In this document: positions 6,434-18,014 of the stretch, piece after piece
How positions within the stretch are numbered: position 1 is the stretch's first letter
Layout of the letters: every line of letters starts with the position of its first letter
Notes under the pieces: generated by a model
What the model was told of the DNA's origin: nothing
What the model saw: the letters and a program-made list of their open reading frames with translations, nothing else
The model's database searches: none
Position numbers and translations under genes: made by a program
Virus record (IMG/VR): IMGVR_UViG_3300045912_000521
Span: 1 to 35,622 of that record
Strand: one strand, 5' to 3'
Origin: a virus
Length of the DNA: 35,622 nt

Positions 6434-7636
6434 ATGAAGATTAACGACCAGCAATTTGGACGACCACAAATACTTTACAAAGCAACCAAAGCACAGATTG
6501 AGGCTACGCCAAACCCGCAGCCTGGTATGATTGCATTTGCAACAGACACCAATCAGATTGGCATTTATACCGGCGGCGGCTGGCAGTGGGGAACTGGCGG
6601 AGGCGATATGCTTAAGGCGATTTACGACACAGACAATGACGGAGTAGTAGACGCCGCCGAGAGTGTAGATTGGGACGGAGTGCAAAATAAGCCGTCAACC
6701 TACCCGCCGTCCAGCCACAATCACGATGACCGATACTATACGGAAGATGAATTGAACACCAGTGGTGGTGGTGGTCAAGTGCATTGGAATAACGTTACCA
6801 CCAAGCCAAGCACTTACCCGCCAAGCGCTCATCAGCACGCCGCCAGTGACACAACCAGCGGAGTATTTGACCCGGCGCGTATCCCGAACCTGGATGCCAG
6901 TAAAATTACCAGCGGCACGCTGAGCACGGACAGGTTTTCGGCGTACAGCGATTTGCAGGCGGAAAGCCGTATCGGCATGGGTATCGGGTTAATGCCCACA
7001 GGTACAGAGTTGCGCCGTGCGCTCAATCAATCGTCTGATATTACAGAAGATTTTACTGGCTCATCTATGCCGTCCGGCTGGTCATGGGCAGGCAGTCCAT
7101 TTGTGACACCGCCAACGGTTGATTATGCTGTTGTGGGCACTCTGTTGCGCGCACGCAGTTATACCAGTGCGTTTCGCTCGTTCTTATTCAAATCAGCGCC
7201 GAATCTATATGCTTATTCAATTCTGTGCGGTTTCGAGGTTGGGACTCAAACCGGTGCTTATGCTGGTGTGCGACTCGACGACGGGACGGACAATAATTAT
7301 GTCGAAGTGGTCTGGTGGAACGTATGGAGTGCAAGCGAGCCCAATATACGCGTGTACTTACGCCAGCGCACTGGGGGCGGTGCGGTCGTAGAAACGGAGA
7401 TGACCAATATGCGTCAAACAATGCCATTAACGTTTACGCGGTTAACGGTTGTGGCAAATGGTACACGCTGGTCAAGTTGGCAACCAGGGGTGCGGCTGGA
7501 TAATCAGTACTTTAGACTGTCTGGATATAGCACCGGCTCAACCGTATCATGGACACCAAGTCGCGCTGGCGTGATTTTTGGCGCGCCGTCCGCGCAGGAC
7601 TGGATGGTGTGGGGCGTTGACGCAGTGGCATTCTGA
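6434..7636 (+). CDS. Tail fibre protein (400 aa)
   Basis: GAGGTG then ATG at 6434. The peptide KPSTYPPS-x-H-x-H is duplicated (SSHNH and SAHQH), an HxH metal-site type of fibre repeat. The fibre motif IPNLDASKITSGTLSTDRF is present. Confidence 0.75.
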   Translation: MKINDQQFGRPQILYKATKAQIEATPNPQPGMIAFATDTNQIGIYTGGGWQWGTGGGDMLKAIYDTDNDGVVDAAESVDWDGVQNKPSTYPPSSHNHDDRYYTEDELNTSGGGGQVHWNNVTTKPSTYPPSAHQHAASDTTSGVFDPARIPNLDASKITSGTLSTDRFSAYSDLQAESRIGMGIGLMPTGTELRRALNQSSDITEDFTGSSMPSGWSWAGSPFVTPPTVDYAVVGTLLRARSYTSAFRSFLFKSAPNLYAYSILCGFEVGTQTGAYAGVRLDDGTDNNYVEVVWWNVWSASEPNIRVYLRQRTGGGAVVETEMTNMRQTMPLTFTRLTVVANGTRWSSWQPGVRLDNQYFRLSGYSTGSTVSWTPSRAGVIFGAPSAQDWMVWGVDAVAF

Positions 7637-7988: not shown

Positions 7989-8840
7989 ATGGAGTGGCCA
8001 AAATCACCATTACCCGATTCCGTATATATCCCAAACGAAGCCGATAAGCGGCTGTTTGGCATTGACATTTCGGGGCATCAGGGTGCAATTGACTTTACCA
8101 AGATGTCTCAATACGCCTGGCCGAAAATACGCTTTATCGCTGCGCGGGCAACCATCAATTGGGGCTACAAAGACGCCTGGTTCAAGAGCTACTGGCGTTC
8201 GATCAAAGAGATACTCAGTATTCCTCGTGCAGCCTACGCGGTTTTGTACCCGCTGCAATCGGTCGCAAGGCAGGTTACCAACTTTGCTGAGCAGTTCGAT
8301 GCACAACGATTCGACGGTGACATTGTTGTGCCAGACATAGAACTCGATCATGGCGCAAGCCGGGCGCAAATCACGACTGCTGTGATCGAGTTTACTAATC
8401 GACTGCGCGACTGGGCAAAGAAACCGGCCATCGTTTATTCGCGCTTCACCTGGGTACAACAATTCATGGATTACCAATCTTCAAAAGCGGTCGATTTTAT
8501 TCAATCCGTGCCTTGGTGGATGGCGCAGTACCTGGCGAACCCACCGCGTGAGGATAACCGCGCGCTGGTGATTCCAAACGCGCTGAAAGGACTACGTTGG
8601 AACGTTGTCATACATCAAACCGGCGAGAAAGCGGCAGGATCGCTGTTCGGCGTTTCGAGTGCGCAGCTCGATACAAACCGCTGGCTGCTTGGAGAAGCCG
8701 AATTTAATGAACTTTGGGGCATACCCCGGGATACTGAGTATCCTGGGGCGCAACCGCAACCTATGCCGGTCGATGTGAGCGCGGAGCTGGCAGCGATCCG
8801 CGAGGCGGCGAATAGGATTGAAGCAAAGATCAAGCAATAA
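7989..8840 (+). CDS. Endolysin, glycoside hydrolase family 25 muramidase
   Basis: AGGAG lies 7 nt before the ATG at 7989. The N-terminal GIDISGHQGAIDFTKM motif is typical of GH25 lysozymes. Confidence 0.8.
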   Translation: MEWPKSPLPDSVYIPNEADKRLFGIDISGHQGAIDFTKMSQYAWPKIRFIAARATINWGYKDAWFKSYWRSIKEILSIPRAAYAVLYPLQSVARQVTNFAEQFDAQRFDGDIVVPDIELDHGASRAQITTAVIEFTNRLRDWAKKPAIVYSRFTWVQQFMDYQSSKAVDFIQSVPWWMAQYLANPPREDNRALVIPNALKGLRWNVVIHQTGEKAAGSLFGVSSAQLDTNRWLLGEAEFNELWGIPRDTEYPGAQPQPMPVDVSAELAAIREAANRIEAKIKQ

Positions 8841-9744
8841 CAAATTTACGTTTGTTTTTTGCCGTTCGCCTGGCGCTGTTGCGCAGATCTTCGCGGGATA
8901 GTTTTACGTAACGACGAATCGTTTTATCATCGCGATGGCCAATGCGCTTTTGGATGGTCAACTCTCCTTCACCAGCTCGATACATGTCCAGCACGTGCTT
9001 CCGGCGGAAGGCATGCAACATTACGGGTTCGACGCCAGCCAGTTTTGCCCGATAGATAATGACTGAGCGTAATCCATCATAGGTCAAGCGTTCTCGATAC
9101 CTGCTAATAAAAACTGCATTCGTGTCACATCTAGGGCGTACATTCAAATAGGCTTTTAGGGCTCGTTTTGTATCACGATCAAAGTCAACCGCGCGTGGAT
9201 AACCGCCCTTGCCCTTTTCTACGTACAAAACAGACAGCGGCAAATCGAGAGCGTCCAGGTCCAACATGAGCAATTCAGATGCCCGTAATCCGGTATTATC
9301 CAGCAGCATGATGATGGCTCGATCCCGGATGCCAGATTGCGTTTTATCACATGCTTTGAGGAGTGCCTCTACCGTTTCCCTGGAAACGGGATCAAGAATT
9401 TCTTCGGGAACCTTGGGCGCCTTGATTTTCCGTATTGGATTTTTCCAGTCTTTAGGCTCATACTCAGTATCATACCAGGTGAAGAATGCGTGTACAGCAC
9501 GGAAGAAGGCGTGTACGCCACCTGGCTTATGACCGGTTTTTAGTTGCAGCAGATAGTCACGAATCATTTCTTCGTCGATGGTAAAAATATCGGTCTTATC
9601 GACCCATTGACAGTAATTCACAAAATTTTCAAGTTTTTGCTTGTAAAAACGCAAAGAACCCGGCGAAAGGTTCTCGGATTCTTTAACTTTTATGAAATAT
9701 TGGGTCAGATATTTTATGGAAGTCCGCTGAGAATCGTTTCTCAT
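8830..9744 (-). CDS. int: Tyrosine recombinase / phage integrase (304 aa from the ATG at 9744)
   Basis: It has a SAM-like N-terminal domain, the C-terminal motifs HAFRRKHVLDMYRAG and GHRDDKTIRRYV (catalytic Tyr region) and RASELLML. The ORF-track extension to 9861 runs through a tRNA fragment. Confidence 0.9.
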   Translation of the reverse strand: MRNDSQRTSIKYLTQYFIKVKESENLSPGSLRFYKQKLENFVNYCQWVDKTDIFTIDEEMIRDYLLQLKTGHKPGGVHAFFRAVHAFFTWYDTEYEPKDWKNPIRKIKAPKVPEEILDPVSRETVEALLKACDKTQSGIRDRAIIMLLDNTGLRASELLMLDLDALDLPLSVLYVEKGKGGYPRAVDFDRDTKRALKAYLNVRPRCDTNAVFISRYRERLTYDGLRSVIIYRAKLAGVEPVMLHAFRRKHVLDMYRAGEGELTIQKRIGHRDDKTIRRYVKLSREDLRNSARRTAKNKRKFVIA

Positions 9745-9823
9745 TTTTATAACCGGCCTTTCATTTTGATACCCCCATATATGCCGGTTATCATCGAAAA
9801 AGAGCGCAAAACAACCAAATGTG

Positions 9824-9879
9824 TAGGGCGGGTGGGACTTGAACCCACAAGGTGTCTCCACCGGCGGATTTTAAGTCCG
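9824..9879 (-). other. attP core: the 3' part of a tRNA-Leu(UAA) gene (part of the anticodon stem, anticodon loop, long variable arm, T arm and 3' acceptor strand)
   Basis: The minus strand reads CGGA-CTTAAAA-TCCGC, then CGGTGGAGACACC, then GTGGG-TTCAAGT-CCCAC, then CCGCCCT-A. No matching 5' acceptor strand or D arm lies upstream. It is adjacent to int. Confidence 0.75.
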
Positions 9880-10203: not shown

Positions 10204-10599
10204 TCATTTCCGCCTCTTCTTCTCTTCCATCTCCACCAGGAAGCGGATGTAATCCACCGCTATTTGTTTTTTCTCTTCGGGCAGCAGGTCGAGCAGGTGA
10301 ACCAGCTGCTGTTGGTACTCAGTATATGCCGGGGCGGGGGGAAGCAGCCCGGCGGCGCGGAAGACGGTTTCGGGGGGTACACGAAAGGCGTTTGCAATAG
10401 CAACACACAACTCATTTCCTGGGCCGCGAGCGCCAGTCAGGACGCCGTTAATGGCCGCTCTCGTTACTCCAGCTTCTCTGGCTAAATCCGCCTGGGATAA
10501 ATTGCGCTTACTCATCTCGGATTGAAGCCATTCAGAAAAGGGATATTTGTCAGCCATTGCTAACATTTTATCTTCAAGAACGTATGCTATGGTGGACAT
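10204..10599 (-). CDS. XRE/CI-type helix-turn-helix repressor
   Basis: The HTH is LSQADLAREAGVTRAAINGVLTG. It is transcribed divergently from the early operon and lies next to int. Confidence 0.85.
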   Translation of the reverse strand: MSTIAYVLEDKMLAMADKYPFSEWLQSEMSKRNLSQADLAREAGVTRAAINGVLTGARGPGNELCVAIANAFRVPPETVFRAAGLLPPAPAYTEYQQQLVHLLDLLPEEKKQIAVDYIRFLVEMEEKKRRK

Positions 10600-13307: not shown

Positions 13308-14039
13308 ATGGTAACTCAATTTGTTGATCCGTGGGACATTGCCGAACAGGCAAAAGAACCCCAGTTCTCAAACGTGATTTGGGGACAGTGTGAGGCAAAG
13401 TCGTGGTGGTGTGTACTGGAGAAAGGAGTTGGTAAGGTGGAATTTGATCCACAGATGCACAGCCCGGATTTGCGCCGCACGGCAATTGACATCATCATTC
13501 ATCCCCTGGCTGACATGGGACTAAACTTTGACCTGGCACGCAACATGATTGCTGAATCGCGGGAATGGGCTGGAATTGTCCTCCCCAGCATCCGTGATAT
13601 GGGCATTAGCCCGAAACAGCTGAACGGTTCGTGGGTCAAGGTGCAAACTGTGACACTGACTGACAAAGCAGGCAATCCGGTTACATACACGGACGGGAAC
13701 GGCATTGTCAAAGAAAAGACCACAATCAAATTCCTGGCGATTTTCAAAGACGAAGCCGAGTGCCGCGCCGACTACCTGGCGAATTCCGGGAAAGCCCACC
13801 AACAGACTCAGTATGCTGGGGGGGGTGGCAATGAAAACGGCAATGGTAACAAAGAGCGCGAAACTGCGTTGAAGTTTCTCAAGGTTTATGTGGAAAATGC
13901 CTGCCGTGGGCAAACCGACCTGAACGTCATCCGCAACACGTTGGCACTGAATATTGCACAGCAGTCACTCATTGCCAAATACTTCACTGTGGATAGCCCC
14001 GAAGTCGTTGAAATGATTGCCAAAGAGATGAGCAAGTAA
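13308..14039 (+). CDS. Hypothetical early protein (243 aa)
   Basis: AAGGAG RBS. No family was recognised by eye. Confidence 0.6.
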   Translation: MVTQFVDPWDIAEQAKEPQFSNVIWGQCEAKSWWCVLEKGVGKVEFDPQMHSPDLRRTAIDIIIHPLADMGLNFDLARNMIAESREWAGIVLPSIRDMGISPKQLNGSWVKVQTVTLTDKAGNPVTYTDGNGIVKEKTTIKFLAIFKDEAECRADYLANSGKAHQQTQYAGGGGNENGNGNKERETALKFLKVYVENACRGQTDLNVIRNTLALNIAQQSLIAKYFTVDSPEVVEMIAKEMSK

Positions 14040-14041
14040 CT

Positions 14042-14218
14042 ATGTACGATGTAACTTTTCTCATCCCGGATTATACAGACTGGCAGGATGAAGAAGATTT
14101 CACTCCACCCGATCCGGACAGCGGAATGCCAGAAACTGAGCGAGACCGCCTATTTGAGGAACTGTGCGCCATGATTGACGCTGGCGCATTTGACCCAGAA
14201 AACGAGATTCTCGCGTAG
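14042..14218 (+). CDS. Hypothetical acidic 58-aa protein, below the ORF-track cutoff
   Basis: The ATG lies 2 nt after the upstream TAA. Translated by hand: MYDVTFLIPDYTDWQDEEDFTPPDPDSGMPETERDRLFEELCAMIDAGAFDPENEILA. Confidence 0.45.
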   Translation: MYDVTFLIPDYTDWQDEEDFTPPDPDSGMPETERDRLFEELCAMIDAGAFDPENEILA

Positions 14219-14233
14219 TGTTGGCTCAAAACC

Positions 14234-14927
14234 TTCAGGCGGCAGGTGCGTGATGATGGGTTCGAGTCCCATTCGCCTGAAACAGCACCTTGACAAGTGA
14301 CATGATCTAAACCAGCCGCCAAAGGGGCAGGATGGAACATCCTGATGGGTGCAAGTCCCATCGGCTGGTTTGGCGAACCTGACCTTGCTAGCGAGGCAGG
14401 TGAAGCCCGTCGCACCCTACACGTGGTGAAAGAGACATGAGCGGCGGGAAAAAGGCAGGGTGACGGCTCGGAGAGACGAGAATACAGACCTGCCTGCAAT
14501 GGCGGGTGCCAAAGCGGATAGAACGCTTGACGAGTGTGGACAGTACATGGTGACACCTCCCACGCCTGCGCCGTGCGGCGTCTGGAACGGCGCAAGTTCT
14601 TTACCATGCTATACGTCGGCTGTGTTGGGAGGCGGGGTCAAGGGTTGAGTCACCAGCCCTTGGCGGTGTAGGGGCAAGGAGTCCCTACAACGGGCGGCAA
14701 GTGAGACCTTTGGAAACTTGCCGGGGGGCGTGACAGCCGGGAGAGACCGGCAACCTTGTACCTTGACATGCGGCAATAGTTCAACAGTAGAGCGGGTTAT
14801 TAAGACTCAGATGGAAGTTCAAATCTTCCTTGCCGCTTTAGCCGGGTGTCCTTTTCACCCGGTGATCCTCCTTCGCAAGGGCGGGCGCGAGGCACATTGC
14901 AAATTATTGGTAGCCAGACGCCCGCCC
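14234..14927 (+). ncRNA. Large unclassified structured RNA locus with three tRNA-like modules carrying T-arm hairpins
   Basis: There is a 730-nt gap between CDSs (14219-14948). I counted 36 G+C in the 60 nt at 14401-14460. At least 11 helices of 5-10 bp were found by hand: 14234-41/14274-81, 14309-18/14362-71, 14394-401/14488-95, 14556-62/14626-32, 14568-74/14587-93, 14637-44/14657-64, 14668-73/14683-88, 14695-702/14716-23, 14736-40/14747-51, 14842-48/14856-62 and 14879-87/14919-27. Strand is inferred from the flanking genes and the T-loop orientation. Confidence 0.6.
14770..14837 (+). ncRNA. tRNA-like element with intact acceptor, D and T arms but no canonical anticodon stem
   Basis: GCGGCAA (14770-76) pairs perfectly with TTGCCGC (14830-36). 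The D arm is GTTC-AACAGTA-GAGC and the T arm is GGAAG-TTCAAAT-CTTCC. The 19 nt between them (GGGTTATTAAGACTCAGAT) cannot form a 5-bp anticodon stem. No CCA is encoded. Confidence 0.55.
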
Positions 14928-14948
14928 AAAAAAATCAGGAGCACTCAG

Positions 14949-15710
14949 ATGGCTATATCAGCAATTATGATAGACCAAAGAGAACCAGATTACATCCAGC
15001 ATCAATTCCCGGGCGCAGCAATAACCCTATTGCAAGCCGGAGACGCCTGGGTTGCGTGTGACGACGGGCATATCCTGTTAATTGAACGAAAGACAAGCGA
15101 TGATTTGCTCAACAGTTTGCGAGACGGCAGACTGCTGGAACAAATTGGACGGCTGGTCAACAACCGCATCAATCAGCAATTGCAGGGGAAATCCCAAACG
15201 TACTGGCCATACCTGGTCGTGACCGGCACACTCAGCCCAGATCACAACGGCAAAGTCTACACCGGACGTGAAACCGGCTGGGCGTGGAACGCGGTGCAGG
15301 GAGCACTATTGACCGTGCAGGAAATGGGCTGTTACGTAGTGCATTGCCCTTCAGATACTGAGTATGGGGGGGTTGTGAATATGCTGGCAAATCGCAAGCA
15401 TGATGACGTGGTGGACATATTGCCGCAAAAACAGCCTATTCCGGTAGACGCAAAGTCAGTTTTCTTGATGAGTTTACCGGGCATCGGCCTGGAACGAGCG
15501 CGGATGATTCTGGAGTGGAGCGGAGGGATTCTGGCTCACGCGATTGTCGGATTAACCGATATGAGCATCAAGTCTCCAATCAGCGATACAACACGACAAA
15601 AAGTACGCGGATTTTTGGGATTGAAAGATAAACAGACGATTGAGTTAAATCTGGATGAACAGGATAGAGAAAAACTGACCATTTTTGAAAAGGAGAAAGC
15701 ACATGTCTGA
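14949..15710 (+). CDS. ERCC4 (XPF/Mus81-type) nuclease with a C-terminal helix-hairpin-helix
   Basis: AGGAG lies 7 nt before the ATG at 14949. The ERK motif is ILLIERKTSDDLLNSLRDGRLLEQ and the HhH is LMSLPGIGLERARMILEW. The 77 codons upstream in the listed ORF lie in the RNA locus. Confidence 0.75.
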   Translation: MAISAIMIDQREPDYIQHQFPGAAITLLQAGDAWVACDDGHILLIERKTSDDLLNSLRDGRLLEQIGRLVNNRINQQLQGKSQTYWPYLVVTGTLSPDHNGKVYTGRETGWAWNAVQGALLTVQEMGCYVVHCPSDTEYGGVVNMLANRKHDDVVDILPQKQPIPVDAKSVFLMSLPGIGLERARMILEWSGGILAHAIVGLTDMSIKSPISDTTRQKVRGFLGLKDKQTIELNLDEQDREKLTIFEKEKAHV

Positions 15711-16438: not shown

Positions 16439-17182
16439 ATGATTGAACATCTTTCCTACTCCAGCATCAGTCTTTATCTCGATTGCCCGGAAGCCTGGCG
16501 GCGCAAGTACATCGCGCAAGAGCCAACAAAAAAGACATCTGCACTCGCTTTTGGCAGTGCATTTCACGGCACAATCGAACGGATGATCCAGAGTACTCAG
16601 TATGATTGGGCGTCAATCTGGTCAGAAGAGTTTGGAAAAGCATTTCAGGACATCACATGGGAATCAGGAGAAACACCAGAACAGCACTACAACGAGGGCG
16701 TGCGTCTGCTGAGTCATGAGGATGTCAAAACGGCTATTCAGTCTATTCAACCCAAATCATCTGATCACATCGAAAAGAAAGTAGAACTGCGTGTACCTGG
16801 TGTACCTGTACCAGTCATTGGCTACATTGACATTATCCTTGCGGACGGTACACCGGCGGACTTCAAAACCAGCGCCAGATCGTGGACACAAGACCAGGCG
16901 AATAACAGCCTGCAAACTTTGTTCTACCTGGCTGCCATGAACCAGATGGGCTTTGAGGTCAACTGGCGTTTCAAACATTTTGTTTTTGTCAAGACCAAAA
17001 CGCCCCAGGTGCAGGTTCTGGAACACAGCCACACACCCGGGGAACTGTTTTTCCTGTTTGAGATGATTAATAGAGTGTGGGAAGGCATCAGCAAAGAGTT
17101 TTTCCCGTTGAATCCAACCACCTGGCGCTGCTCAGAAAAGTACTGTGACTTTTTCGCCAATTGCAGAGGGCGGTATGTATGA
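16439..17182 (+). CDS. PD-(D/E)XK exonuclease, Cas4/RecB-like with a Cys cluster
   Basis: There is an N-terminal Cys (LDCPEAW), the core GYIDIIL...DFKT and a C-terminal WRCSEKYCDFFANC. It is adjacent to recT. Confidence 0.75.
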   Translation: MIEHLSYSSISLYLDCPEAWRRKYIAQEPTKKTSALAFGSAFHGTIERMIQSTQYDWASIWSEEFGKAFQDITWESGETPEQHYNEGVRLLSHEDVKTAIQSIQPKSSDHIEKKVELRVPGVPVPVIGYIDIILADGTPADFKTSARSWTQDQANNSLQTLFYLAAMNQMGFEVNWRFKHFVFVKTKTPQVQVLEHSHTPGELFFLFEMINRVWEGISKEFFPLNPTTWRCSEKYCDFFANCRGRYV

Positions 17183-18014
17183 CTTATTCGGCAATCCAGT
17201 TACAACTCAATCGAAATGCAAAGTCACCGTCCAGAACGGCGCGCTGCAAATTGTCACCCCATACAATCCGCAATTTGTAGCATTAGTGAAAAGTCTGCCA
17301 GCCAGCGCCAGACGTTTTGACCCAATCAGCAAAGCCTGGCTGGTGGACACTCAGTATGGAAGACAGGTGCGGGAATGGATACAAAAGGTTTACGGTGAGG
17401 ATATTAATATTGCAGTATCCGATTTCCAACCGAAAAGTGAAACGCGCATCCTTGATGTTTGGTATCTCGGCAAGACCAAACCCGTTGGCGATGAGTATGT
17501 TGCCAACGGCATGAATGCACAGAAGGAATGGGTCTTCATCTTTCCCGAACGTGTCCTGAAAGAATGGTTTGAAGGATTCACAACCAGTCTGAGTGGTCCA
17601 ACGCTTTACGGTATCCTCGGTATCCACCGCAACGCATCACAAGACGAAATCAAGAGCGCTTACCGGCGTATGGTCAAACAGTGGCATCCTGACGTCTGCA
17701 AGGAACCAAATGCACAGGAAGTGTTCATCAAAATCAAAGAAGCCTACGAGATACTGAGTAACCCGCAGACCAAAGCCAAATATGACGCTGGACTGGCACT
17801 GGAAGCCAGTTTGGGAAAACAGCACGAGATTGAGAATCGTTTTGGCTACCGCTCGCCCTTACGATGCGGCTATGTCCTTGCCGAAGGGTATGACCGTCTC
17901 GGCCGTTTCTACGTTCAGAAAATCCTGAATTGGGAAGACATTACAACTGATAAGGGCACGCTGGTCGCGTCATGGCCAATGGGCGCGACAGAACCTATGT
18001 GGAGCTGGATATGA
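17175..18014 (+). CDS. J-domain (DnaJ-like) protein (279 aa)
   Basis: LYGILGIHRNASQDEIKSAYRRMVKQWHPDVCKEPNAQEVFIKIKEAYEILSNPQTKAKYD contains the HPD tripeptide. Confidence 0.8.
   Translation: MYDLFGNPVTTQSKCKVTVQNGALQIVTPYNPQFVALVKSLPASARRFDPISKAWLVDTQYGRQVREWIQKVYGEDINIAVSDFQPKSETRILDVWYLGKTKPVGDEYVANGMNAQKEWVFIFPERVLKEWFEGFTTSLSGPTLYGILGIHRNASQDEIKSAYRRMVKQWHPDVCKEPNAQEVFIKIKEAYEILSNPQTKAKYDAGLALEASLGKQHEIENRFGYRSPLRCGYVLAEGYDRLGRFYVQKILNWEDITTDKGTLVASWPMGATEPMWSWI

Follow-up and report, generated by a model that had tools for sequence, protein, structure and literature searches.

The IMG/VR virus record IMGVR_UViG_3300045912_000521 (35,622 nucleotides, nt; "the window" below means this whole stretch) belongs to a temperate phage with genes for a GH25 lysin, an integrase (8830–9861, − strand) and a helix-turn-helix repressor (10204–10599, − strand). 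Its + strand run comprises a C5 methylase gene, small genes, genes for proteins of 243 and 58 amino acids (aa), a 730-nt gap, and then genes for an ERCC4 nuclease, a RecT-like annealase, a PD-(D/E)XK exonuclease, a DnaJ-domain protein, VapE, PrimPol, terminase and portal. The gap, which is the subject of this analysis, reaches from the stop codon of the 58-aa open reading frame (ORF; stop at 14216–14218) to the ERCC4 initiation codon (ATG at 14949), and this gene order agrees with its placement, in an earlier reading made from the sequence alone, between early genes and the recombination module. That sequence-only reading saw here one large ornate RNA, akin to the GOLLD and ROOL RNAs or of a new class. 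We find instead that the gap is modular and holds two tRNA-like minihelices, a non-decoding tRNA-like element, a covarying two-hairpin motif in duplicate, and a hairpin with an anti-Shine-Dalgarno (anti-SD) sequence on one side and a Shine-Dalgarno (SD) sequence on the other (Table 1). It is probably an untranslated cassette slot in the early rightward operon of a temperate Anaerolineae phage, filled by small RNA modules that are independent of one another.

Table 1. Features of the gap 14219–14948, in order of position in the window
Feature	Position	Strand	Evidence or description
Conserved leader TGTTGGCTCAAAAC	14219–14233	+	directly 3′ of the 58-aa gene stop
E1, tRNA-like minihelix	14234–14281	+	7–9 bp closing stem, 14234/36–14242 with 14273–14279/81
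Spacer ACCTTGACAAGTGACATG	14287–14304, repeated 14753–14770	+	direct repeat D3; each copy directly 5′ of a tRNA-like module
E2, tRNA-like junction	14309–14371	+	10-bp closing stem, 14309–18 with 14362–71
Segment paired by hand or in minimum free energy folds, without comparative support	14482–14612, also 14377–14413	+	only identical copies
Motif 1 copy a (weaker)	14414–14481	+	covariance model R1, 20.9 bits, E 3.6e-4 at 14446–14484
Motif 1 copy b, decorated P1	14613–14752	+	covariance model R1, 42.2 bits, E 1.2e-9 at 14712–14754
E3, tRNA-like, related to tRNA-Thr	14770–14837	+	Rfam tRNA, 44.3 bits (gathering score 29)
Hairpin H-a, GCCGGGUG-UCCUUUU-CACCCGGU	14841–14863	+	local fold
Probable translational operator of ERCC4	14866–14941	+	anti-SD UCCUCCUU 14866–73, hairpin H-b, A-run, SD AGGAG 14937–41

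The ORFs that can be drawn in the gap are mechanical only: 178 aa antisense (14071–14607, overlapping the 58-aa gene), 62 aa sense (14460–14648), and 55, 48 and 45 aa. None of 10 ORFs has a Pfam or PHROGs match at E ≤ 1, and an identical public contig carries no gene call here, so the earlier claim that the gap lacks a credible gene stands, and no coding gene or pseudogene across it came to light in these searches. It was also described as GC-rich and densely base-paired, and both descriptions are accurate. Its G+C content is 57.4% compared with 49.5% for the rest of the window, and the minimum free energy (MFE) of the 730 nt is −306.7 kcal/mol, with a z-score of −4.68 on the + strand (20 dinucleotide shuffles) and −3.59 on the − strand (dinucleotide shuffles). 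The pairings that were re-read in the sequence are present: GGCAGG at 14395–400 and GGCAGG at 14454–59, each opposite the same CCTGCC at 14489–94, and the nested pair CCTCCCA 14556–62/TGGGAGG 14626–32 around GCGCCGT 14568–74/ACGGCGC 14587–93. Three T-arm-like hairpins were likewise found (14256–72, 14345–61 and 14813–29). An RNA of the + strand is the best reading of this structure, since the stems of E1, E3 and motif 1 contain G·U pairs that would be A·C mismatches on the − strand, the fold z-score is better on the + strand, and the tRNAs adjacent to motif 1 in other phages are oriented as it is.

A search against all Rfam models had been proposed, and cmscan was run with all 4227 models of Rfam 15, on the whole window at the gathering score and on 13900–15300 at E ≤ 10 with lax filters. 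The sole match above threshold is the tRNA model at E3, and GOLLD, ROOL, tmRNA, RNase P, group I/II introns, ribozymes and riboswitches gave none at either setting. Weak matches to ST7-OT3_2, Pyrobac-1, sR39, Entero_5_CRE and Yar_3 (E 0.5–9) were judged to be chance. ARAGORN calls no tRNA and no tmRNA in the window, and blastn of 14100–15100 against 50,697 phage records found no match. No credible sigma-70 promoter or intrinsic terminator was found on the + strand within the gap, where three TTGAC-type hexamers lack a −10 element, and the scan placed no promoter at the spacer ACCTTGACAAGTGACATG.

Three of the modules resemble tRNA. In E1 and E2 the 3′ strand of the closing stem lies flush with a 5-bp hairpin bearing a 7-nt T-loop (U[UG]C[GA]ANN), which is the acceptor/T-arm coaxial stack of tRNA, and the D and anticodon arms are replaced, in E1 by a 13-nt linker and in E2 by a linker and one hairpin (~14328–14344). 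The T-arm-like hairpins, ATGGG-TTCGAGT-CCCAT in E1 (14256–14272) and ATGGG-TGCAAGT-CCCAT in E2 (14345–14361), are 89% identical duplicates (direct repeat D1). The arms of E2 form a perfect inverted repeat (I7), and the element has an MFE of −36.7 kcal/mol (z −4.68; none of 200 shuffles is as stable); it gave no tRNA match at E ≤ 10 and has no diverged homologue among the loci examined (numbered below with the prefix L). E1 reaches 15.3 bits with the Rfam tRNA model and 17.7 bits (E 1.8) with mascRNA-menRNA (RF01684), below the 42.5-bit threshold of that family, to which it is not assigned; these weak alignments (14236–14280) cover exactly the acceptor stem and T arm. The homologue of E1 in L129 (1097–1137) shows a compensatory T-stem change from AU to CG. 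The same minihelix architecture stands right after the leader in L011, L012, L013, L016, L017, L068, L122, L131 and L129, with four different closing stems and seven different T stems at that position. The family was tested by a structure scan with shuffled controls, in place of a covariance model: the window gave two hits, exactly E1 and E2, versus none in shuffles, related loci gave 18 versus 0.67 in shuffles, and unrelated IMG/VR loci 11 versus 2.7.

E3 is much closer to a true tRNA. Its acceptor (7 bp), D (4 bp) and T (5 bp) stems are perfect, and its anticodon arm consists of a 5-bp stem and a 5-nt loop, AUUAA (10 versus 13 inner positions in the Rfam alignment). It thus passes the tRNA model (RF00005) and fails both the test of a 7-nt anticodon loop and recognition by ARAGORN, and with a loop of 5 nt it is not a decoding tRNA. 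A genuine tRNA-Thr(UGU) occupies the same slot in L006, L009, L079, L086, L128 and L075 and, by eye, in L344 and L350. Outside the anticodon arm E3 is 72% identical to the tRNA-Thr of L006/L079 and 68–70% identical to other tRNA-likes; slot and similarity together suggest that it descends from tRNA-Thr. The tRNA-likes of L085 and L127 have shortened anticodon arms of their own. Over nine sequences (E3, the L085 and L127 tRNA-likes and six tRNA-Thr) pairing in the acceptor, D and T stems stands at 97%, double-change cells number 35 versus 10.8 in shuffles, and none of 500 shuffles reaches the observed score. This pattern argues for a tRNA shape that is maintained without decoding and against free decay.

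A direct repeat in the gap, GTGACGGCTCGGAGAGAC/GTGACAGCCGGGAGAGAC, was the basis of an exact-pattern scan of IMG/VR and turned out to mark a two-hairpin motif, here called motif 1, of the form AC-NNN...NNN-GUGAC-R-[GCNNG GAGAGA CNNGC]-A. Its parts are a first helix P1, in which (A)AC-NNN and NNN-GU enclose a variable loop of 4–78 nt, then GAC-R, a second hairpin P2 (GCNNG-GAGAGA-CNNGC), and a 3′ A. The R1 covariance model, run with filters off on the 35.6-kb window, gives two significant hits only, both in the gap and on the + strand. In copy b, P1 is a long-range helix, ACGUC 14613–17 with GGCGU 14727–31, that encloses three hairpins; GAC-A (14732–35) follows, then P2 (GCCGG-GAGAGA-CCGGC, 14736–51) and A14752. 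This copy folds in isolation into exactly the architecture described, and its homologue in L129 (nhmmer 4e-15) keeps all the helices, five pairs being changed on both sides. In copy a, P1 was assigned by reading the sequence (ACCCU 14414–18 with AGGGU 14457–61) and is followed by GAC-G (14462–65) and by P2 (14466–70 with 14477–81, loop GAGAGA 14471–76), of which the outermost pair G14466/A14481 is a G·A mismatch and four are standard. The MFE fold prefers the GGCAGG/CCTGCC helix around P2 of copy a. Because of the mismatch at the base of P2 and this competing helix, the fold of copy a is uncertain and it is regarded as the weaker member.

The exact pattern GTGACRGCNNGGAGAGACNNGC occurs in more than 120 IMG/VR contigs among the matches listed, and the reversed pattern, which has the same composition, occurs in none. 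An AC-NNN/NNN-GU partner helix of at least 5 bp is present in 87 of 119 instances. A set of 23 sequences gave 99.6% paired cells and a covariation score of 0.349 versus 0.107, which none of 500 shuffles equalled. The variable positions of P2, which the search pattern leaves unconstrained, are GC, CG, UA and AU pairs. No Rfam 15 family overlaps motif 1 (gathering score, 40 loci; E ≤ 5 on canonical copies), and models of ribozymes, riboswitches, RNase P and introns gave no match in 45 loci with canonical copies of motif 1 or of its presumed variant motif 2 (described below). The motif sequences were not found in the literature searched, and they were not compared with the 10,006 candidates of the IMG/VR structured-RNA catalogue (PMC10690425).

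The surroundings of motif 1 are those of a generic element. The genes downstream fall into 145 clusters among 175 and are mutually unrelated. A tRNA lies within 300 nt of 15% of instances versus 4% of random positions, often 4–13 nt downstream, and all 18 tRNAs near the motif are on its strand; in L143 motif 1 stands at the head of a run of tRNA genes. One copy per ~8.5-kb locus is usual, and ~13 of 100 loci have two or three tandem copies 100–350 nt apart, as the window does. Annotated phages of Synechococcus, Planktothrix, Ralstonia and Bradyrhizobium carry it, mostly in unannotated intergenic DNA, so that its hosts, Chloroflexi included, span cyanobacteria and beta- and alpha-proteobacteria as well. 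Synechococcus phage MinM2 has it in the space between divergent genes, ~170 nt ahead of the gene that opens an operon. Among loci whose ERCC4 is 40–45% identical, R1 finds the motif in L024, L028, L075, L023 and L031, just upstream of ERCC4 in all but L031.

Relatives of the window carry a further element, type B, made of a hairpin with a CCUCC loop followed by GCCGG-AGAGCGUAA-CCGGC. It belongs to a second pattern (motif 2, GCCGGAKARCGTAACCGGC) found in 88 IMG/VR contigs. The hybrid in L127, which has GUGAC and then a hairpin with a CGUAA loop, suggests that motif 1 and the CGUAA-loop pattern are variants of one family. In the first hairpin of type B (L129 1006–1055; L006 ~818–868; L344, L348, L349) the 7-nt loop is CCCUCCU, UCCUCCC or CUCCUCC and mimics an anti-SD; its stem covaries (GCG/CGC, CUG/CAG, GUG/CAC; UCGGCG/CGCCGA versus UCAGCG/CGCUGA) around a conserved bulged A. 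Possible pairing partners of this loop are the SD of the gene that follows or the conserved GGGAGG in copy b (14625–30). A query based on motif 2 matches 89 nt, in two pieces, of Pectobacterium phage ZF40 (L341, JQ177065.1 5534–5981); the match stretches from a point shortly after cI past gp09, in front of gp08 and the exonuclease genes, and its intergenic parts are unannotated. In phage λ the counterpart of this position is occupied by PL and nutL.

The 3′ end of the gap is taken up by two hairpins. Equivalents of H-a with different stem sequences occupy the same relative place in L005, L087, L125, L127 and L130. H-b (stem 14879–87 with 14919–27), together with the anti-SD and the SD, is the only part of the gap that blastn and nhmmer find in several relatives, namely the same five loci, where the last 80–130 nt recur. 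In MFE folds of the window, L005 and L130 the SD is paired with the pyrimidine tract, closing the base of H-b, and in that of L127 it is not; a comparable order of pyrimidine tract, hairpin and SD is seen in L013, L017, L068, L024 and L075. The H-b loop sequence is itself conserved in relatives (GCGTTGCGG..TTAC.GGTA), which hints at a bound factor.

That the modules are independent is seen most directly in the relatives. The ERCC4 protein has hundreds of them, many 60–83% identical, from Anaerolineae metagenome-assembled genomes (MAGs) and digester metagenomes. A single-sequence ERCC4 protein scan of IMG/VR gave no match and profiles were required; profile-based scans found the relatives, and ~130 syntenic loci were gathered. 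Dozens of loci preserve the succession of 243-aa gene, 58-aa gene, gap and ERCC4, and their gaps measure 87–730 nt, most often below 250 nt. The commonest layout is the leader TGTTGGCTCAAAAC, a type B element, an optional tRNA-Thr(UGU) and the ribosome-binding site (RBS) (L006, L009, L079, L086, L128, L344–346, L349, L350). The slot holds type B and tRNA-Thr in L006, L009, L079, L086, L128 and L344, type B only in L349, a minihelix only in L011, L016 and L019, type B with E1 and motif copy b in L129 (where blastn and nhmmer recover 14219–14286 and 14601–14778), and type B, a long tRNA-like, an E3-like element, H-a and H-b in L127. Small ORFs fill it in L005, L012, L018, L056 and L122, and in L347 (117–1716) and L348 (905–2504) a 394-aa ParB-N/N6_N4 methyltransferase gene and a 140-aa gene stand in place of the RNA modules. 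In L348 the leader and type B element still precede the methyltransferase gene; the corresponding part of the L347 contig is cut off. In more distant relatives (L024, L028 and L075) a tRNA or tRNA-like element and motif 1 again occur together, and L024 and L075 also have the anti-SD hairpin. These differing fillings (type B, tRNA, minihelix, ORFs, methylase) mark the slot as a hot spot for cassettes or morons, and the window carries an unusually long filling that is RNA throughout.

Two short sequences recur with the modules. The leader, which occurs once in the window, is near-identical in the same place in most syntenic relatives, namely L006, L009, L011, L012, L017, L068, L079, L085, L086, L088, L127, L344, L348 and L349. 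Spacers similar to ACCTTGACAAGTGACATG (GAACCTTnT...AACA) precede tRNA-like modules in L127, L129 and L130.

The gap and ERCC4 are 100% identical in a Bellilinea sp. MAG contig (L002/L084) and a Logan contig (L003), and the 58-aa and 243-aa proteins just upstream are only 70% and 76% identical between the window and the Bellilinea MAG. As the upstream proteins diverge and the gap does not, gap and recombination module travel together across a recombination boundary near 14147. From about this point on (end of the 58-aa gene, gap and ERCC4) the window is 98–100% identical to the MAG (L002 5199–6200), and the RecT downstream is 86% identical. About 210 nt of the gap, 14377–14413 and 14482–14612, are known only from these 100%-identical copies, and no diverged copy of 14377–14612 was found among 350 loci examined. 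The two alternative GGCAGG/CCTGCC helices, in which the sequence-only reading saw a possible conformational switch, lie in this segment without diverged homologue. The local fold z-score is ~0 for both 14496–14560 and 14553–14640. The outer helix of the nested pair, 14556–62/14626–32, would cross P1 of motif copy b, within which its 3′ partner lies.

The slot also hosts tRNA-likes of other kinds. A family of long forms (94–130 nt) occupies it in L005 (1125–1218), L087 (~2786–2880), L127 (2551–2657), L130 (~2775–2887), L024 (~1562–1685), L028 (~2493–2615) and L294 (~6600–6716). Their acceptor is GGCGGGC/GCCCGCC, a GYGTG-GTGGGRA-CACRC hairpin stands where the D arm would be, the middle is long and variable, and the T arm is canonical; of these elements ARAGORN recognises just that of L005 (a 94-nt "tRNA-Ala"), and they do not reach E ≤ 1 with the Rfam tRNA model. 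Just upstream of ERCC4, ARAGORN reports a 2-base "anticodon" (6-nt loop) in L122 (2680–2756) and L123 (1779–1855) and a 4-base anticodon (8-nt loop) in L026 and L100 (2662–2738 in each), and anticodon loops of aberrant size seem to recur throughout this group of phages. In L024 a stretch between the two-hairpin motif and a tRNA-Thr(CGU), 1829–1878, has a sub-threshold match to the DUF3800-VI RNA motif (26.7 bits, gathering score 35, E 0.31).

Other explanations of the gap have to be weighed against independent modules. A single ornate RNA of ~700 nt, representing a new GOLLD/ROOL-like class and taking up the tRNA-like arms and hairpins as domains of one fold, would account for the fact that the gap as a whole folds better than shuffles, that it adjoins and contains tRNA-like elements, as GOLLD and ROOL often do, that it is identical in two backgrounds with differing upstream genes and so moves as one block, and that the CCTCCCA/TGGGAGG helix ties the unassigned segment to copy b. 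Relatives, however, carry the pieces (~45–140 nt and self-contained) separately and in other orders, mostly in gaps below 250 nt; the segments between modules fold no better than shuffles, no long-range pair has comparative support, and no Rfam large-RNA model matches even at E ≤ 10. We consider it quite unlikely. The locus shares with GOLLD and ROOL a phage or prophage context, tRNA or tRNA-like neighbours, high G+C and several hundred nt free of ORFs; neither a match to their covariance models nor conservation as a single large multi-domain unit was found, and there is no conserved multi-stem junction across the region. What survives of the sequence-only reading is thus a non-coding, structured + strand RNA tied to tRNA-like elements in a phage, and what does not is the single large ornate RNA. 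Somewhat easier to entertain, though still unlikely, is the view that the gap is functionless debris, a decaying tRNA cluster with recombination scars in a moron hot spot. The slot is indeed hypervariable and accepts protein-coding inserts, E3 cannot decode, E1 and E2 share a duplicated T arm, and the ~210 nt have no homologue. Against this view, all stems of E1, E2 and E3 are intact, with differences from relatives in the acceptor, D and T stems compensated; a short anticodon arm beside otherwise perfect arms is found in three lineages, the minihelix architecture recurs with many stem sequences far above shuffled expectation, motif 1 covaries and is conserved across phyla, and the anti-SD/hairpin/SD layout is kept.

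The position just upstream of a recombination and replication module, the many inverted repeats and the better-than-shuffled fold of the − strand might also suggest an element acting as DNA, such as a replication origin, an attP or other recombination site, or a packaging site with hairpins in single-stranded DNA. It is also common for the attP site of a phage to include the 3′ portion of a tRNA gene. This idea is very improbable: the integrase gene is 4.3 kb away, the tRNA-likes include a covarying 5′ acceptor strand that an attP core does not need (for these two reasons attP itself was rejected), the G·U pairs are strand-specific, the T loops carry the sequences of T arms in RNA, motif 1 runs in the same direction as the genes and tRNAs that follow it, and no iterons or repeated operator were found. 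That the gap is a degenerate or unrecognised protein-coding gene is hardly credible. The mechanical ORFs speak for it; they lack domain matches and gene calls, the longest is antisense to the 58-aa gene, and the homologous stretch of L129 differs by non-triplet indels and paired compensatory changes. Several narrower resemblances were considered and set aside: that of the GGTGCAAATCC hairpins to cobalamin riboswitches finds no support in Rfam, the topology of the hairpin ribozyme (suggested by UGACAG) does not map, a T7/SP6-type promoter (GTGACA...GGGAGA) is rejected since the intervening bases form a covarying GC-rich stem, and a CRISPR-repeat mimic is not known to resemble any repeat family.

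If the gap is a slot of independent RNA modules, it would be transcribed with the early operon on the + strand, and its function is most likely cis-acting control and processing of the early transcript. RNase P classically accepts minihelices made of an acceptor stem on a T arm. As the tRNA-like modules share the shape that RNase P and RNase Z recognise, they are taken as punctuation signals: cuts there would part the early genes from the recombination module in the polycistronic RNA, in the manner of tRNA punctuation or mascRNA-type 3′-end formation, possibly with release of stable tRNA mimics. The GUGAC-GAGAGA motif and its CGUAA-loop variant may be a generic cis-acting expression element working on a host machine conserved across phyla, as they are indifferent to the gene that follows, precede both tRNAs and mRNAs, usually occur once per operon-sized stretch, and cross phyla. 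Our leading guess is a put-like effect on RNA polymerase, by which transcription would be carried through long untranslated, Rho-sensitive stretches such as the gap and tRNA arrays; a processing or stability structure is the second. The last hairpin would keep the ERCC4 RBS closed until opened and so set translation of the recombination module.

Several known systems bear on these proposals. Phage tRNA clusters are one of them. The tRNA region of phage T4 includes the stable species 1 and 2 RNAs, which are non-canonical tRNA-like genes. In the present phages E3 likewise fills the slot of a genuine tRNA-Thr and keeps its acceptor, D and T arms, and odd tRNA-likes are common in the group (6-nt and 8-nt anticodon loops, long forms), whereas E1 and E2 lack a D arm, E1 lacks an anticodon arm as well, and E3 has a 5-nt anticodon loop. 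Among tRNA-like processing signals, of which mascRNA at the 3′ end of MALAT1, mitochondrial tRNA punctuation and minihelix substrates of RNase P are examples, an acceptor stem stacked on a T arm likewise stands inside a longer transcript. The structured copy b, which ends 17 nt before E3, recalls the 3′ structure of MALAT1 that precedes mascRNA; the score of E1, well short of the mascRNA threshold (17.7 versus 42.5 bits), and the bacterial, phage setting separate the two. The last module resembles the hairpins of 5′ untranslated regions that sequester an SD: shortly before the ERCC4 start, a stable hairpin is predicted to have at its base a pyrimidine tract paired with the SD. It differs in that the H-b loop has a conserved sequence of its own.

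The put RNA of phage HK022 is ~70 nt long, has two stem-loops, and acts in cis on RNA polymerase in early operons to suppress pausing and termination (PMC9378689). About ten such sequences from lambdoid phages have been aligned, and membership is defined by suppression of termination in cis via the zinc-binding domain of the RNA polymerase β′ subunit (PMC9378689). Motif 1 was compared with put in architecture and position only: its common form is of 45–70 nt with two adjacent stem-loops, and it lies in early-operon leaders and intergenic sites. A put-like activity would be useful ahead of untranslated stretches, and the spread of motif 1 across phyla fits a partner as conserved as RNA polymerase. 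Unlike put, motif 1 is found in hundreds of contigs, is often very near an RBS and is sometimes tandem.

Theta ribozymes lie downstream of tRNAs and fold into a nested double pseudoknot (P1, P1.1, P2, P3, P4) with a catalytic C in J4/2. They too are small RNAs closely tied to phage tRNA genes, whereas motifs 1 and 2 are two simple adjacent hairpins, usually upstream of a tRNA or gene. The CCUCCUCGC loop of type B resembles the L3 region of the hepatitis delta virus (HDV) ribozyme; an HDV-like fold for type B was rejected on topology, as neither in type B nor in motif 1 could a P2 or a J4/2 equivalent be mapped by hand, and no HDV-type model of Rfam matched. Motif 1 is thus not a theta ribozyme, its position relative to the tRNA being on the wrong side as well. 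The cleavage sites of HDV-like theta ribozymes are within 5 nt of a phage tRNA (PMC10879173).

Some observations tell against the picture of independent modules acting in cis on the early transcript. The script that picked P1 of motif 1 demanded pairing, which inflates the pair statistics of P1, and P2, with its unconstrained variable positions, is the clean test. The motif often ends 8–25 nt before an RBS and is sometimes tandem, which suits a role in translation or stability no less than one in processive antitermination. No CCA is encoded by the tRNA-like modules, which are possibly short-lived debris of a tRNA-Thr gene. E2 and the whole long layout are known from two phage backgrounds only, identical in sequence, and a longer-range fold is possible in the ~210 nt that have no assigned module.

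The outcome is deflationary in that there is no new giant RNA here, and the locus is not to be filed with GOLLD or ROOL. It may best be described as a phage tRNA/tRNA-like cluster with cis-regulatory RNA, one component of which is perhaps a new RNA class. More ambitiously, the motif and its CGUAA variant could form a new cross-phylum class of phage cis-RNA that acts directly on a universally conserved host machine (either RNA polymerase, with put-like processive antitermination shielding untranslated tRNA arrays and leaders from Rho, or the processing apparatus of RNase P and RNase E), in company with deliberately kept anticodon-less tRNA mimics; this joint proposal is conceivable, and we hold it only tentatively, thinking it somewhat doubtful. 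Its small size, generic setting and conservation across phyla make motif 1 a good candidate for direct contact with RNA polymerase, the ribosome or an RNase, and in vitro tests of so short an RNA would be quick. From the last hairpin comes a specific model, open to test, of how translation of the recombination module might be controlled. The slot, in a large group of Chloroflexi phages, is an exchange point for small RNA cassettes (tRNA-Thr, its look-alikes and T-loop minihelices) and gives a natural series in which to study the role of anticodon-less tRNA mimics in infection.

Among the neighbouring genes, those for the 243-aa protein and the acidic 58-aa protein (13308–14218) are kept beside the slot across the phage group, down to ~30% identity. 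Neither protein has a match in Pfam, PHROGs, NCBIfam or PDB sequences, and the 243-aa protein contains a Gly/Asn-rich linker, GGGGNENGNGN. The DnaJ (J-domain) protein gene (17145–18014) lies within the replication/recombination module and is kept in L002, L003, L125 and L127.

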